31,321 nt of DNA from contig JAWOII010000104.1 of NCBI GenBank assembly GCA_046484755.1, positions 64,001 to 95,321 on the forward strand, in the 5' to 3' direction. Of this stretch, positions 1 through 17,812 are shown piece by piece. This DNA is from Enhygromyxa sp. Its GTDB lineage: Bacteria; Myxococcota_A; Polyangia; Nannocystales; Nannocystaceae. Below the pieces are notes generated by a model that ran no database searches, was not told the origin of the DNA, and saw only the letters and a list, made by a program, of their open reading frames with translations. Every line of letters starts with the position of its first letter. Position 1 is the stretch's first letter. Position numbers and translations under genes: made by a program.

Positions 1-87
1 CTCGCGGCCGAGCTCGAGCTCGCGCTCGGCTGCGGCGAGCCAGTCGCGATCGCTCAGGCGCCAGAGCCAGTGATCAGCGTCGAGCAT
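1..87 (-). CDS. Possible 5' end of a minus-strand gene running off the window (MLDADHWLWRLSDRDWLAAAERELELGRE...). The plus frame is also open here, so this is ambiguous.
   Basis: ATG at 87..85; open frame with GC-rich third positions to window start. Plus frame also open until TAG at 91-93. Confidence 0.25.
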   Translation of the reverse strand, partial: MLDADHWLWRLSDRDWLAAAERELELGRE

Positions 88-90
88 CGC

Positions 91-255
91 TAGCAGCCCG
101 TGGTGAAACCCATCGCGGCCCAGAGTGCGTCACTGGGGTTCGAGGCCGCGAAGCCAAAACGAAGTTGTATCGGGATACTACGAGCTTTTGGCGACAAAGG
201 CATCGGACGTCAGGGGCGTGCTCTGGGGTGCGAGGGGTTTCACCACGGGCTGCTA
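91..255. repeat. About 165-bp imperfect palindromic element. It has perfect 21-bp terminal inverted repeats (91-111 tagcagcccgtggtgaaaccc; 235-255 gggtttcaccacgggctgcta) and a nested 7-bp IR (GCCAAAA...TTTTGGC).
   Basis: Reverse complement of 91-111 equals 235-255 exactly. The interior is about 75% self-complementary and has lower GC. It lies just downstream of the minus-strand lipoprotein stop codon. Confidence 0.7.
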
Positions 256-1646: not shown

Positions 1647-4925
<3,279 letters not shown>

Positions 4926-5057: not shown

Positions 5058-6653
5058 ATGGCCCTGATCGGTTCCATGACGGCGTCGGTCTGGTTGGCGC
5101 CGATGATCCCCAAGCTGCCGCTTCCGCTCGCGCAGCGGATCGATCGCTTGCTGCAGGCCAAGCCAGGACGTGAGACCGAAGCGCACGCGCTGAAGCTGTG
5201 CGAGGCGATCGTCGCCTACGCCGCCTGTGTGCGCGTGGCGGTGGCGGTGGCGGTGGTACCGGCCGCTCGGCGCTCGGCGCTGAGCAAGGCGGTCGATGAG
5301 CTTCGCAAAGTGGTCGAGCGCGGCGAGGCGAGGATCGCGAACTTTCGCGACCTGCTCGTCGCGGCCGCCAACGCGATCGAGGCGCTCGAGCCCGGGCACC
5401 CCCTCGGCCGGACCGAGCTGACCCGGCCGCGCACCGCCTGGGTCGCGCGCACGCAGCTGGTCGAGGCGCTCGGCGACAGCGTCGCAGTCGACGAGGCGAC
5501 CCGAAGTGGGGCGCTCGAGGGCGGGATCGCGGGGATCGTCGATCTGTGGGTCGCGCTAGTCGAGGCTCGGCACGAGGTCGAGATCGAGGCGCAGGGCGAT
5601 CCGTGGCTGCCCGCGCTCGGGGACGTGATCGTCGACATGCTCGGGGCCTCGGCGCTGCTCGGGGAGGCCTCGCTCACGCATCCCGAGCCGCTCGACGAGG
5701 GCGGCGTCGGCGAGCTGCGACGTCTGCACGGGCTCGAGGCCGAGCCCGACGACGAGCCGGCCCCGCGCGAGGCCTACGAGCCGGGCGTCGTGTGCTGGCG
5801 CTTCGATGATCAGGTGGTGTCCTCGTGCGGGCTGCTCGGCTACTGGGCCGACGAGCACGACTTCGATCACGTCGGCGTGATCGCTCGGCAGCGCCAGACC
5901 GCTGCCTCTCAGGCATCCCCGCCAGCACCGACCGTCGCTTCGCTTCCGTCGGTACACCCATGCCATCCCGGGGATGCCGAGTACCTCGACTACGGCTCCG
6001 GGTCGCGCTCACCGGCCACCGGCGCAGGCCAGGTGGCCTGGGATCGGCTCCGGGTCACGGCCGTCGAGGTCGAGCCCGAGCGGAGCGCCTCGCCGGTGTT
6101 CGTGCTCGTGGCCGCGGCGATCGCCTTGTTGCTGGTGATCGCCGGCGTCGCCTGGGCGCTGTGGCCAGTCTCTGACTCGGGCGAGCCCGGCCAAGCGACC
6201 GGGAGCTCGGGCCAGCCGATCGCGCGGACCCAGCAGACCAAGGCTCAGCCCGAGGAGCCCGGGCCCGATCCGGAGTCGGAGATCGTCATCGAGACCGAGC
6301 CGGAGCCCGAGACCTCCGCACATGGGCTGGGCGGGCGCTCGTCGGGCGCCGAAGGCGAGGAGCCGGAGACCGCCGAGGCCGAGCTTCCGAGCGCTTCGCT
6401 TTGGTTCGAGAGCGAGCGCAACCTCGGCACCTGCTCGGTCACCTACGACGGCCGGACCCGCAACGCGAACCTCCACCTCAAGACCAGGGCGCCCGAAGGA
6501 AAGCTGGAGTTTTCCTACCGCTGCGGCGAACATCGGGGGCGAGGGTCGATCGACGTCAAGCGCAACCGGGTCAACGGAGTGCTGTTTTGCAAGAAGAACG
6601 GAGCGGTCAAGGTGAAGACCGTACGCAGCAACGAGGGCCGCTGTGATCGTTGA
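5058..6653 (+). CDS. Hypothetical membrane protein. It has a ~290-aa cytoplasmic N-domain, one TM segment (VFVLVAAAIALLLVIAGVAWALW), an acidic EPE linker and a C-terminal Cys-containing beta-rich domain.
   Basis: 531-aa ORF with good GC3 except in the 5913-5979 inserted palindromic element. Its stop overlaps the start of the next gene (GTGATCGTTGA). Confidence 0.6.
   Translation: MALIGSMTASVWLAPMIPKLPLPLAQRIDRLLQAKPGRETEAHALKLCEAIVAYAACVRVAVAVAVVPAARRSALSKAVDELRKVVERGEARIANFRDLLVAAANAIEALEPGHPLGRTELTRPRTAWVARTQLVEALGDSVAVDEATRSGALEGGIAGIVDLWVALVEARHEVEIEAQGDPWLPALGDVIVDMLGASALLGEASLTHPEPLDEGGVGELRRLHGLEAEPDDEPAPREAYEPGVVCWRFDDQVVSSCGLLGYWADEHDFDHVGVIARQRQTAASQASPPAPTVASLPSVHPCHPGDAEYLDYGSGSRSPATGAGQVAWDRLRVTAVEVEPERSASPVFVLVAAAIALLLVIAGVAWALWPVSDSGEPGQATGSSGQPIARTQQTKAQPEEPGPDPESEIVIETEPEPETSAHGLGGRSSGAEGEEPETAEAELPSASLWFESERNLGTCSVTYDGRTRNANLHLKTRAPEGKLEFSYRCGEHRGRGSIDVKRNRVNGVLFCKKNGAVKVKTVRSNEGRCDR
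5913..5979. repeat. About 66-bp palindromic REP/RPE-like element (10-bp TIR GGCATCCCCG/CGGGGATGCC) embedded in-frame in the 5058 ORF. Its paralogue lies at 31233-31298.
   Basis: About 92% identity to 31233-31298. Perfect terminal inverted repeats. Low GC3 in the host frame. Confidence 0.7.
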
Positions 6654-7770
6654 GCTGATCCTGAGCGCGGCGCTGGTCCTCGGTCCGCCGATGGGCGCGA
6701 GCCCGGAGGGACCGGCCGCGCCCGAAGAGGGTGAGCTGGGCGATGGCGAGCCAGGGGAGGGTGAGCCGGTCGAGGGTGAGCCGGGCGAGGGCGAGCCGGT
6801 CGAGGGCGAGCCGGGCGAGGGCGAGTCGGGCGAGGGTGAGCCCGAGGAGGGTGAGGGTGAGCCCGGCGAGGGTGAGCCCGAGGAGGCGATCGACGTCGAG
6901 ACGGAGGCGATCGTCGAGGCCGCCTCCGAGGCCGTCCAGGATCGCGCGGTGCTCGAGCGCAACAACAAGGAGGTGCCCGAGTTCGTCCGCCACCTCGACG
7001 CGCTAGCGACCGTCGAGGGCCGGCTCGACACCTGCGGTAAGGCGGTCCAGGCCGAGGCGCGCATGGATCTCGCGCTCGCCTACCTGCGGGTCGCCGGCAC
7101 CTGCGACGCCAACGAGCTCACCGACGATCAGCTCCCGGAGCTCGAGTATCCCCGCGAGTGCGCCGGCGCGGCCACCCCCCACGACTGCGCGGCCTACCTG
7201 CTCGAGCGCGCGGCCGAGTTCGGCGACAGCGGGCCGGCCGGGGCCGAGGACCCGCTCGCCCAGGCCGCGGGCTGCCCTCACGCGGCCGAGTCGATGTCCG
7301 TCGAGCGCATGTTCGGCGGCTGCGTGGCGCAGGAGTACGAGGCCGCGGTCGAGCGCTGGCGCGCGAGCCAGGGACCCCCGGCGCCGATCGTCGACGGACC
7401 CCGTCGCATCAACCTCCCGGTCCCCCGCTGGGGCAGCATCCTCGGCGTCTCCCTCGGCGTCGGGGCGATCGCCGCGGGGGCGGCCCTGGTCGCGATCGAC
7501 GGGCGCTGCCCCGGCGGCCACGACCCGATGACGGACATCGAACAGTGCCCGAACGTCTACAACACCGACGCGGGCGGAGCCGTGCTGCTCAGCGTCGGCG
7601 CCCTCGCGGTGCTCAGCATGGGCGCGATCTTGACGATCACCGAGATCCAGAAGAAGCGGGGGCGAGGCAAGGCCAGCGAGGCCGCGCTGCGTCGGCGGAT
7701 GGACCGGGTCGCCGCGATCACTGGATGGCAAGCACCGCGCCTCCGACTTCGGCCCCAGCGCCGGCTTTGA
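6643..7770 (+). CDS. Hypothetical protein with N-terminal (GEPGEGEPVE)n acidic repeats, a Cys-containing middle domain and two C-terminal TM segments.
   Basis: GTG start at 6643, 8 nt before the upstream gene's stop. 375 aa. The 3' ~50 codons are Arg-rich and overlap the convergent lipoprotein gene, so the true end may be earlier. Confidence 0.55.
   Translation: MIVELILSAALVLGPPMGASPEGPAAPEEGELGDGEPGEGEPVEGEPGEGEPVEGEPGEGESGEGEPEEGEGEPGEGEPEEAIDVETEAIVEAASEAVQDRAVLERNNKEVPEFVRHLDALATVEGRLDTCGKAVQAEARMDLALAYLRVAGTCDANELTDDQLPELEYPRECAGAATPHDCAAYLLERAAEFGDSGPAGAEDPLAQAAGCPHAAESMSVERMFGGCVAQEYEAAVERWRASQGPPAPIVDGPRRINLPVPRWGSILGVSLGVGAIAAGAALVAIDGRCPGGHDPMTDIEQCPNVYNTDAGGAVLLSVGALAVLSMGAILTITEIQKKRGRGKASEAALRRRMDRVAAITGWQAPRLRLRPQRRL
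6726..6890. repeat. 18/36-nt tandem coding repeats (ggcgagggcgagccggtcgagggtgagccg) encoding GEPGEGEPVEGEP.
   Basis: Visible periodicity in the sequence. Confidence 0.85.
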
Positions 7771-16801: not shown

Positions 16802-17812
16802 CTACTGCTGGACGCAGTACAGCCGCCGCGGCCACTGACACTGGGACATGGAGTTGTTGCTGATGAAGTTGCTCTCGTGGGTGGAGATGCCCGACCTGCC
16901 CGTCGCCGCGTCGGTCCCGATCGACCAGTTGTTGCAGTTCGAGTCGGACCGCCAGCTCGGGATCATGCCCGTCCAGACCCCGTTGCCGCTGTCGGGGCCG
17001 ATCGCGTGCTGGAGCGGCATGGCCTGGCCCATGGCGACGCCGAGCAGCGCCTCGTGGCCGGTGATCGCCAGCAGCTGGCCCTGGTCGTTGATGTAGTGGG
17101 TGAAGGGCTGGAGCACCCAGTCGACCTGGCCATCGCCGGCGAAGTCGGTGAGGGTCGCAACCCGGTTCACGCCGTCGGAGATCATCGCCCGGTAGCCGCC
17201 GGGGCACTTGCTGTCGGCGCCCGCGATGCCGCCGAGGTCGCCGCTGAAGGTCTCGAGGGTGATCAGGATCTCGCGCTGCTCGACGTAGCCGGAGCACTCC
17301 GGGTTGCAGTCGCCGAGGTTGATGCCGTTGTTGGGCCCTTCGTCGCAGACCTCACCCTCGCCGATCTGGCCGTCGCCGCACACGTTCGGCGGATCGCCGT
17401 CGCCGTCTCCGGTGTCGCCGTCGCCGTCACCAGAGTCGCCGTCACCGTCACCGGAGTCACCATCGCCATCGCCATCGCCATCGCCGTCGCCGGTATCGCC
17501 ATCGCCGTCACCGGAGTCGCCATCACCGTCACCGGAGTCGCCATCACCGTCACCGGTGCTCGGGTCGCCGTCGCCGTCGCCGGTCGCCGAGGTGTCGACG
17601 CACAGCCCCTGAACACACTCGTAGGTGCCGAAGCAAGTCAGGTTGGGCAGGCACTCACAGTCGACGCGGCCCGGCTCGCACGCGTCTCCGGTCTCGCTCG
17701 AGTCGTCGTTGCCGACTGGATCCGGATCCTCGAAGCAACCAACCAGGGCCCCGGCCGCGAACAGGCCCAGGGACGAGAGGAGCAAGGTCAGAGGACGAAG
17801 CTGCATGGGCAT
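16802..17812 (-). CDS. Lipoprotein (MPMQLRPLTLLLSSLGLFAAGALVGC). It has an N-terminal Cys-rich module, a (GDGDGDSGDGDGDT)n acidic repeat, a Myxococcus-type Cys-rich repeat (CGDGQIGEGEVCDEGPNNGINLGDCNPEC) and a C-terminal ~200-aa domain, possibly DUF1554-like.
   Basis: ATG 17812/17806 inside track ORF 16802..18145. Lipobox LVGC. The CxDGxxxxGExCDxGxxN…C module is typical of myxobacterial secreted proteins. Confidence 0.75.
   Translation of the reverse strand: MPMQLRPLTLLLSSLGLFAAGALVGCFEDPDPVGNDDSSETGDACEPGRVDCECLPNLTCFGTYECVQGLCVDTSATGDGDGDPSTGDGDGDSGDGDGDSGDGDGDTGDGDGDGDGDGDSGDGDGDSGDGDGDTGDGDGDPPNVCGDGQIGEGEVCDEGPNNGINLGDCNPECSGYVEQREILITLETFSGDLGGIAGADSKCPGGYRAMISDGVNRVATLTDFAGDGQVDWVLQPFTHYINDQGQLLAITGHEALLGVAMGQAMPLQHAIGPDSGNGVWTGMIPSWRSDSNCNNWSIGTDAATGRSGISTHESNFISNNSMSQCQWPRRLYCVQQ
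17395..17592. repeat. 18-nt tandem coding repeats encoding GDGDGD(S/T) in the 16802-17812 lipoprotein.
   Basis: Visible periodicity (tcgccgtcaccggagtcgccatcaccgtcacc…). Confidence 0.85.

Follow-up and report, generated by a model that had tools for sequence, protein, structure and literature searches.

The question raised by this locus is what a 165-bp imperfect palindrome represents beside the lipoprotein gene that is coupled to greA. The first-pass annotation of the window (the whole 31,321-nucleotide stretch of DNA that was analysed) had noted the palindrome and offered a MITE-like element, a structured sRNA or 3'UTR, or a protein-binding site as explanations. Its description of the sequence was accurate. 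The perfect 21-bp termini are exact inverted copies, TAGCAGCCCGTGGTGAAACCC being found at 91–111 on the plus strand and at 235–255 on the minus strand, and this is far beyond chance. With up to three mismatches allowed, the 31,321 bases contain no third site, and 100 shuffles gave no match at all. The pairing gains one base on each side, C90 and G256, to give 22 out of 22. Self-complementarity, put at about 75% for the interior, was 76% in a repeat search, for inverted arms at 77–147 and 199–269; counted symmetrically about its centre, the palindrome has 52 Watson-Crick and 7 G:T pairs in 82 positions. The nested inner inverted repeat was returned by the same search as arms at 153–171 and 174–192 (GCCAAAAC...GTTTTGGC), and the locally lower GC content is also real, 0.57–0.58 within the element versus 0.70–0.78 in the flanks. 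Folding the RNA, as had been proposed, gave one long hairpin on either strand, with -119.7 kcal/mol (z -12.7) for the plus strand and -93.8 kcal/mol (z -10.3) for the minus strand. The corresponding DNA folds gave -66.5 kcal/mol for the plus strand and -51.6 kcal/mol for the minus strand.

The number of copies was examined by scanning the terminal 18-mer CAGCCCGTGGTGAAACCC over one genome per species. It was found at a minimum of 116 genome stretches, with at least 130 instances in several phyla, usually as inverted pairs about 158 bp apart. Among the matches listed, the hosts include Acidobacteriota (chiefly chromosomes of the Vicinamibacterales, of which there are many, besides Thermoanaerobaculia and Bryobacterales), the Nannocystaceae and other Myxococcota, Planctomycetota and one Longimicrobiales genome. 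Individual genomes of the Vicinamibacterales or Nannocystaceae often contain several loci. A single Vicinamibacterales record, OZ253576.1, holds at least 8 family loci, and the 31 kb of the source genome holds one family copy. Inverted pairs of ends with no more than three mismatches numbered 63, and 33 of these measured exactly 158 bp from CAG to CTG, which is the mode; the remainder range from short fold-backs of 51–89 bp to long variants of up to 385 bp, with none above 400 bp. In aligned copies the similarity is bounded sharply by CAGCCCG on one side and CGGGCTG on the other, with no relationship between the sequences outside. The 18-nt ends vary little or not at all among the 37 copies aligned, and a profile made from these 37 has its sole match in the window at 90–256, with 85.6 bits on the plus strand and 41.2 bits on the minus strand. 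In the interior the nearest sampled copies are just 52–55% identical to the window's element, which thus belongs to a subfamily outside the sample. A distant blastn search of the element against a plasmid collection gave no match, and one match in a viral contig, which fell inside a phage ORF, was discarded as chance.

The boundaries of the element follow from the family length mode, the profile match and the alignment of copies (alignment A1), which place the MITE proper, 159 bp reading CAGCCCGTGG...CCACGGGCTG on the plus strand, at 94–252. Its left terminal inverted repeat, CAGCCCGTGGTGAAACCC at 94–111 on the plus strand, is the exact inverted copy of the right one at 235–252 on the minus strand. 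The apical nested hairpin at 153–192 on the plus strand, found in the repeat search and in the alignments, is homologous to the apex of the Nannocystaceae-type copies (GCCGAAAC...GTTTTGGC). ORFs crossing 94–252 are either mechanical ones of 37–43 aa or long spurious ones of the kind typical of high-GC DNA.

Several departures from the standard form were seen among the copies. Locus L006 contains, at 5860–6201, three head-to-tail copies at a spacing of 162 nt joined by CTGC (...CCACGGGCTG-CTGC-CAGCCCGTGG...), which looks like either the insertion of neighbouring copies or tandem amplification. Longer copies in L014, L040, L049 and L079 (Vicinamibacterales OZ244838.1 and OZ253576.1) hold one or several GTAGGGGCAACCCTTGTGGTTGCCC units inside them, and these units may be another small palindromic repeat family. 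The fold-backs of 51–89 bp (L003, L027, L045, L054, L062, L107 and L036 6560–6635) have kept both ends and the hairpin and lack the centre; one of the short fold-backs, in the Longimicrobiales genome, abuts a tRNA gene. Solo ends of about 22–25 nt with no partner were found in L089 at 7550–7567 (Nevskia soli), L073 at 4096–4113, L110 and L102. A solo end sometimes lies directly upstream of a gene start, and that of L073 precedes the ATG of an epimerase-like gene by 9 nt. The ORFs beside solo ends in these genome loci were ordinary genes, with no transposases among them.

The bases immediately outside the ends were then compared for signs of a target duplication. The outer four bases are CTAG at 91 of 164 element ends, followed in frequency by CTGG, CCAG, CTAA and TTAG. 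In the window CTAG is present on the left at 90–93, in agreement with the flank consensus of the family, and on the right at 253–256. Since CTAG is itself a palindrome, from this copy alone a duplication is indistinguishable from two extra repeat bases per end, and copies flanked by other tetranucleotides are needed to decide. Non-palindromic direct 4-bp repeats were found in at least seven copies other than that of the window, namely TTAT/TTAT (L067), TACA/TACA (L063), TCCA/TCCA (L077), ATAG/ATAG (L109), CCAG/CCAG (L055), CTGG/CTGG (L031) and CTAA/CTAA (L105). These flanks are direct and not inverted, a pattern diagnostic of a cut staggered by 4 bp. The landing sites are also characteristic with respect to genes. 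At 33 of 164 ends (20%) a flanking ORF, supported by the GC content at third codon positions (GC3), terminates in frame at the duplicated TAG or TAA, and in L101 and L022 there is stop-codon overlap at both ends. Copies touch the 3' ends of genes 49 times versus 24 times for 5' ends, and their contexts were convergent in 12 cases and divergent in none.

A candidate for the source of the transposase was found from two Planctomycetota contig ends, each carrying a family terminus and then the start of an ORF, MALGKRKPLEQPLF. A degenerate peptide scan of metagenomes with MALGKRKPLEQPLF led to L125; a metagenome scan with a 26-mer from the end of the Planctomycetota element gave zero matches. L125 contains a complete 1,500-bp element with one ORF of 461 aa. 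Its left end is CTAG followed by CAGCCCGTGGCGAAACCCC and its right end is GGGGTTACGCCACGGGCTG followed by CTA, the terminus next to the right flank reading CCACGGGCTG and then CTA. In Pfam the 461-aa protein matches DUF772 (2.5e-16) and DDE_Tnp_1_6 (1.6e-5). Its best NCBIfam scores are 150.1 bits for IS1182 (cut-off 270) and 71.6 bits for IS5_4 (cut-off 140); as both fall below the cut-offs, the protein is called related to IS5 and IS1182 and is assigned to neither. Fourteen further full copies (L126–L139) have a left end equal to the MITE end over 18–20 nt. Together with L125 they measure 1.49–1.50 kb and encode a transposase of 461–464 aa, and duplications of CTAG/CTAG (5 copies), TTAG/TTAG and GTAG/GTAG were seen among the fourteen. 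IS5 duplicates a Py-T-A-Pu tetranucleotide, most often CTAG (PMC5493358), and the IS found here shares this trait of the IS5 group in making a 4-bp duplication of a Py-T-A-Pu target.

The transposase is abundant, with at least 8,000 homologues at E ≤ 1e-20, mostly on contigs of 1.5–2.5 kb; such short contigs are typical of a repeat that breaks assemblies. Annotated homologues on plasmids, which bear the labels ‘transposase’ or ‘IS5 family transposase’, do not exceed 48% identity. In one Vicinamibacterales genome a transposase remnant with 60% identity was found 200 nt away from a MITE, and no transposase gene is present in the 31-kb window. In L124 (1–3554) a 96%-identical transposase gene stands beside an rve-type (IS3/IS481-like) ORF and another IS5-type transposase ORF, a small nest of IS elements.

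The relationship between the MITE and the IS is confined to the ends. The window's left repeat at 94–111 corresponds to the outermost 18 nt of IRL, the left end, in the IS copies L126–L131, and its right repeat, reading inward, agrees with the IS left end for 20 nt. Both MITE ends therefore resemble the left end of the IS, whose right end shares just 12 nt. Past the first 20 nt, comparison of the MITE interior with the subterminal regions of the sampled IS copies gave nothing significant (z ≤ 2.6), and origin of the MITE by simple internal deletion of the IS was ruled out on this ground. The likeness to the left end at both ends, combined with an unrelated interior, makes the family look like a fold-back built on one end.

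If the palindrome is an insertion then relatives with an empty site might exist. The first-pass annotation had asked for the synteny of the spacer to be compared. By its GreA homologues the organism belongs near Enhygromyxa and Pseudenhygromyxa in the Nannocystaceae; named genomes are 76–79% identical in GreA, metagenome contigs reach 92%, and no exact match to the window's GreA was on record. The closest relatives, at 91–92%, are uninformative on the site because their contigs break inside the lipoprotein repeats. Contigs that are long enough, with GreA 85–90% identical, are L119, L121 and L122/L123. All have the same gene order as the window, carB, greA, the lipoprotein gene and an ORF of 145–151 aa on one strand, and in each the element is absent, the lipoprotein stop being separated from the next ATG by 11, 13 or 0 nt. 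The downstream ORF in these relatives starts MVDSEHWLWRL or MHDADHWLWRL. In L121 the CTAG at the stop codon is unoccupied (...CCCTAGAACGAGGCTCCCCATG), and its junction ...GATCCCTAGAACGAGGCTCCCCATGCAC... may be set against that of the window, ...GAGCCCTAG, 159 bp, CTAGCGATGCTC.... The absence of the element from this junction in the relatives implies that the window copy inserted after these lineages split. L121 does hold a 72%-identical copy of the element at 3653–3820, in its carB–greA spacer, about 1.3 kb from the site that is occupied in the window.

The relatives also clarify the genes of the window, all of which lie on the minus strand in this region. carB, known from the ORF list, occupies 1647–4925. 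It is followed by greA at 882–1367, the first gene of a greA–lipoprotein–ORF unit, whose homologues carry PF03449 and PF01272, and by the lipoprotein-like gene with GDGDGDAT repeats at 253–885, which overlaps greA translationally and is syntenic in L119, L121 and L122. Its TAG stop codon is 253–255, that is, within the right CTAG. Positions 1–87, which read MLDADHWLWRL..., are the N-terminus of the conserved downstream ORF (MLDADHWLWRLSDRDWLAAAERELELGRE) cut by the window edge, with the ATG at 87–85; they are homologous to the 145- and 151-aa ORFs of L119 and L121 and to L122/L123. The start codon of this gene (85–87, minus strand) sits 2 nt past the left CTAG. It had been suggested earlier that 1–93 might be coding on the plus strand, with the inverted repeat arising from codon constraints, and this is not borne out, since 1–87 codes on the minus strand and is matched by the ORF in the relatives; a convergent plus-strand gene sharing the CTAG was considered and dropped for the same reason. 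The element thus interrupts an operon, falling after the stop codon of one gene and before the start codon of the following one. The earlier placement of the element downstream of the greA-coupled lipoprotein gene was correct insofar as it follows the stop codon of that gene, but the gene is not the last of its unit and the element lies between two genes of the same strand.

Two further features of these genes were recorded. In Nannocystaceae-like relatives (L119 5013–5450, L121 5141–5596) the lipoprotein gene coupled to greA is always followed by the ORF of 145–151 aa, M.D.(D/E)HWLWRL...AITHARRAAGMALNG, for which no Pfam family was found. Long tandem repeats of GDGDGDAT-type units with a period of 12–24 nt are present at 256–590, in the minus-strand lipoprotein gene, and at about 17363–17589; the stretch near 17.4 kb cross-matches the lipoprotein-gene repeats of relatives, whose contigs often end inside repeats of this type.

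Given these results, the sequence at 94–252 is very probably a non-autonomous transposable element, a MITE with an IS5/IS1182-related partner, that inserted into a CTAG at a stop codon. It is small and non-coding, has terminal inverted repeats and a 4-bp direct duplication, and both an autonomous partner and an empty site could be found for it. Of the explanations first put forward, the MITE-like element is thus the one upheld, by the copy number, the ends common with a transposase-bearing IS, the 4-bp duplications and the empty sites. Both ends of the element would be copies of the left terminal repeat of the 1.5-kb IS, and the shared ends and target suggest that the 461-aa DDE transposase (DUF772 with DDE_Tnp_1_6) recognises them and moves the element in trans. 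A staggered cut at CTAG would have led to its duplication to 90–93 and 253–256. The target CTAG probably held the TAG stop of the lipoprotein gene, and in that case the duplication kept the stop intact and left 2 nt between the other copy and the next ATG. A protein-binding site is appropriate as a description only for the ends, as putative transposase-binding sequences, and no other binding reading fits.

The element would now lie inside the greA–lipoprotein–ORF transcription unit, and the operon mRNA would carry its bottom strand, predicted to fold between the stop and start codons into a hairpin of about -94 kcal/mol. When folded in context the stem runs into the flanking coding sequence and the ATG is at the stem base. 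Through polarity or processing the element may reduce expression of the downstream ORF, or the stem may keep stop–start coupling largely intact. There is a small possibility that the base of the hairpin, by joining an upstream stop codon to a downstream start codon, allows insertions at operon junctions to keep translational coupling and so to be tolerated. The most likely status of the window's copy is that of a tolerated selfish insertion.

The strength and conservation of the hairpin have nevertheless to be weighed, as they bear on the alternatives. In the 37 aligned copies pairing stands at 94.4% over 43 consensus pairs, of which 26 have changed on both sides; none of 500 shuffles reached this level and slid controls gave 35–45%, although the copies share ancestry so that the covariation counts overstate the number of independent events. 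One-sided changes are mainly wobble-compatible on the strand equivalent to the window's plus strand, with G:U in 93 cells versus A:C in 18. In the terminal helix wobble variants are found in 9 columns and A:C in 1, and wobble-compatible one-sided changes thus reach even into the putative transposase-binding ends. The top strand, to which the plus strand of the window's element corresponds, folds better in 36 of 38 copies. All of this would suit a functional structured RNA module acting from a top-strand transcript, mobile or not, as a stabiliser of mRNA, an RNase processing site or an attenuator. Such a module is improbable, however. Rfam 15 gave no match in the window, where positions 1–400 searched at E up to 10 yielded chance-level hits only, and nothing but a tRNA in nine family loci. 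The orientation of copies relative to flanking genes shows no significant bias (28 versus 21, p = 0.39; 16 versus 9, p = 0.23), which argues against an RNA role at the level of the host, and the operon mRNA of the window carries the weaker bottom strand. The birth of each subfamily by fold-back would mimic compensation, and the target duplications and empty sites mean that each copy is an insertion and not a conserved regulatory site. For the lack of an Rfam match, the absence of orientation bias and the weaker folding of the transcribed strand, the sRNA or 3'UTR of the first-pass annotation likewise gains no support as a host function. A cut-and-paste model on double-stranded DNA does not explain the covariation and the strand-asymmetric wobble. 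One might suppose that the fold-back is a selected feature and not a by-product, its pairing being maintained through compensatory changes in subfamilies with otherwise unrelated interiors, and that the life cycle includes a single-stranded form of the top strand (ssDNA during mobilisation or a transcript of a master copy), but this seems rather unlikely; if true, a single-stranded stage would be unexpected for a DDE transposon of the IS5/IS1182 type.

Two other readings also begin from the hairpin. A very stable GC-rich stem directly following a stop codon could be an unusually long terminator or attenuator that arose in situ in the spacer between the lipoprotein gene and its downstream neighbour, yet the ~80-bp stem is followed by no T/U run on either strand. 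A scan of 1–1600 for promoters and, on both strands, for terminators found nothing. That the sequence might be unique and simply an unusual terminator is contradicted by members of the same family at unrelated loci in several phyla; as relatives without the element have a spacer of 0–13 nt as well, this origin can be given hardly any credence. The remaining candidate is a REPIN, a doublet of REP sequences spread on single-stranded DNA by a RAYT (Y1, IS200/IS605-like) transposase. The element resembles one in being palindromic over its whole length, extragenic and multicopy, in the head-to-tail array of L006 and in having one strand that folds better, as expected of a single-strand substrate. 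Against it, the copies carry 4-bp direct target duplications, which Y1 transposases are not known to make, and the ends equal those of an IS with a DDE transposase that makes the same duplication. REP sequences are lineage-specific in REP/RAYT systems, whereas these ends are conserved across phyla, and no RAYT gene was noticed beside any copy on casual inspection of the neighbourhoods. A REPIN is therefore extremely improbable, and the MITE remains the preferred identification.

One feature of the hairpin was noted separately. AGGAGC or GAGG(G)AGC, which resembles a Shine-Dalgarno sequence, occurs on both arms on the same strand, as a direct repeat at about columns 70–80 and 100–110 of alignment A1. 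Two divergent subfamilies have it, in the upper part of the hairpin where pairing is poor, examples being L074 3456–3613 and L101 6670–6827.

The consequences of the MITE reading extend beyond this locus. For annotation, an odd 165-bp palindrome is explained as a transposon insertion and the gene model at 1–87 is corrected. The family is present in soil and sediment bacteria of at least four phyla, and its ends of 18–20 nt are nearly invariant. High-GC genomes contain few CTAG sites, and these tend to fall on TAG stop codons, giving a simple ‘safe landing’ rule, and the same rule also predicts where such elements break metagenome assemblies. A literature search for a 14-mer of the element end returned no paper, and nothing relevant was found on MITEs in myxobacteria or Acidobacteria or on MITEs of IS1182; an earlier description of the MITE family or of its IS partner was found neither in the papers searched nor in Rfam or plasmid records. 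The window's element is nonetheless of an ordinary, well-documented kind.

The terminal repeat of the partner IS, CAGCCCGTGGTGAAACCCC, is unlike the IS5 end. In other respects the partner is similar to IS5 of E. coli and the IS5/IS1182 group of DDE elements, having a single transposase with DUF772 and DDE domains and short terminal inverted repeats, and sharing with IS5 a 4-bp duplication of consensus CTAG with variants that include CTAA and TTAG (PMC5493358 for IS5). It differs in that its transposase scores below both NCBI cut-offs, and the window holds a non-autonomous derivative only. REP sequences and REPINs are likewise extragenic palindromes that form long hairpins at high copy number, sometimes in tandem arrays, and are set apart from the present family by its target-site duplications, its ends common to a DDE IS and the conservation of those ends across phyla.

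Closer parallels exist. ERIC of enterobacteria and Correia/NEMIS of Neisseria are MITEs that form a hairpin over their whole length and lie in transcribed intergenic DNA. Like the family described here they are 100–170 bp long and non-coding, with terminal inverted repeats and many copies per genome; they duplicate a short target containing TA, are often co-transcribed and exist as long variants and as short ones with internal deletions. The end sequences differ, however, as do the targets, TA in those elements and the 4-bp CTAG in this family, and the hosts here are high-GC Acidobacteriota, Myxococcota and Planctomycetota. A further difference is that here the cognate transposase-bearing IS, with identical ends, can be named.
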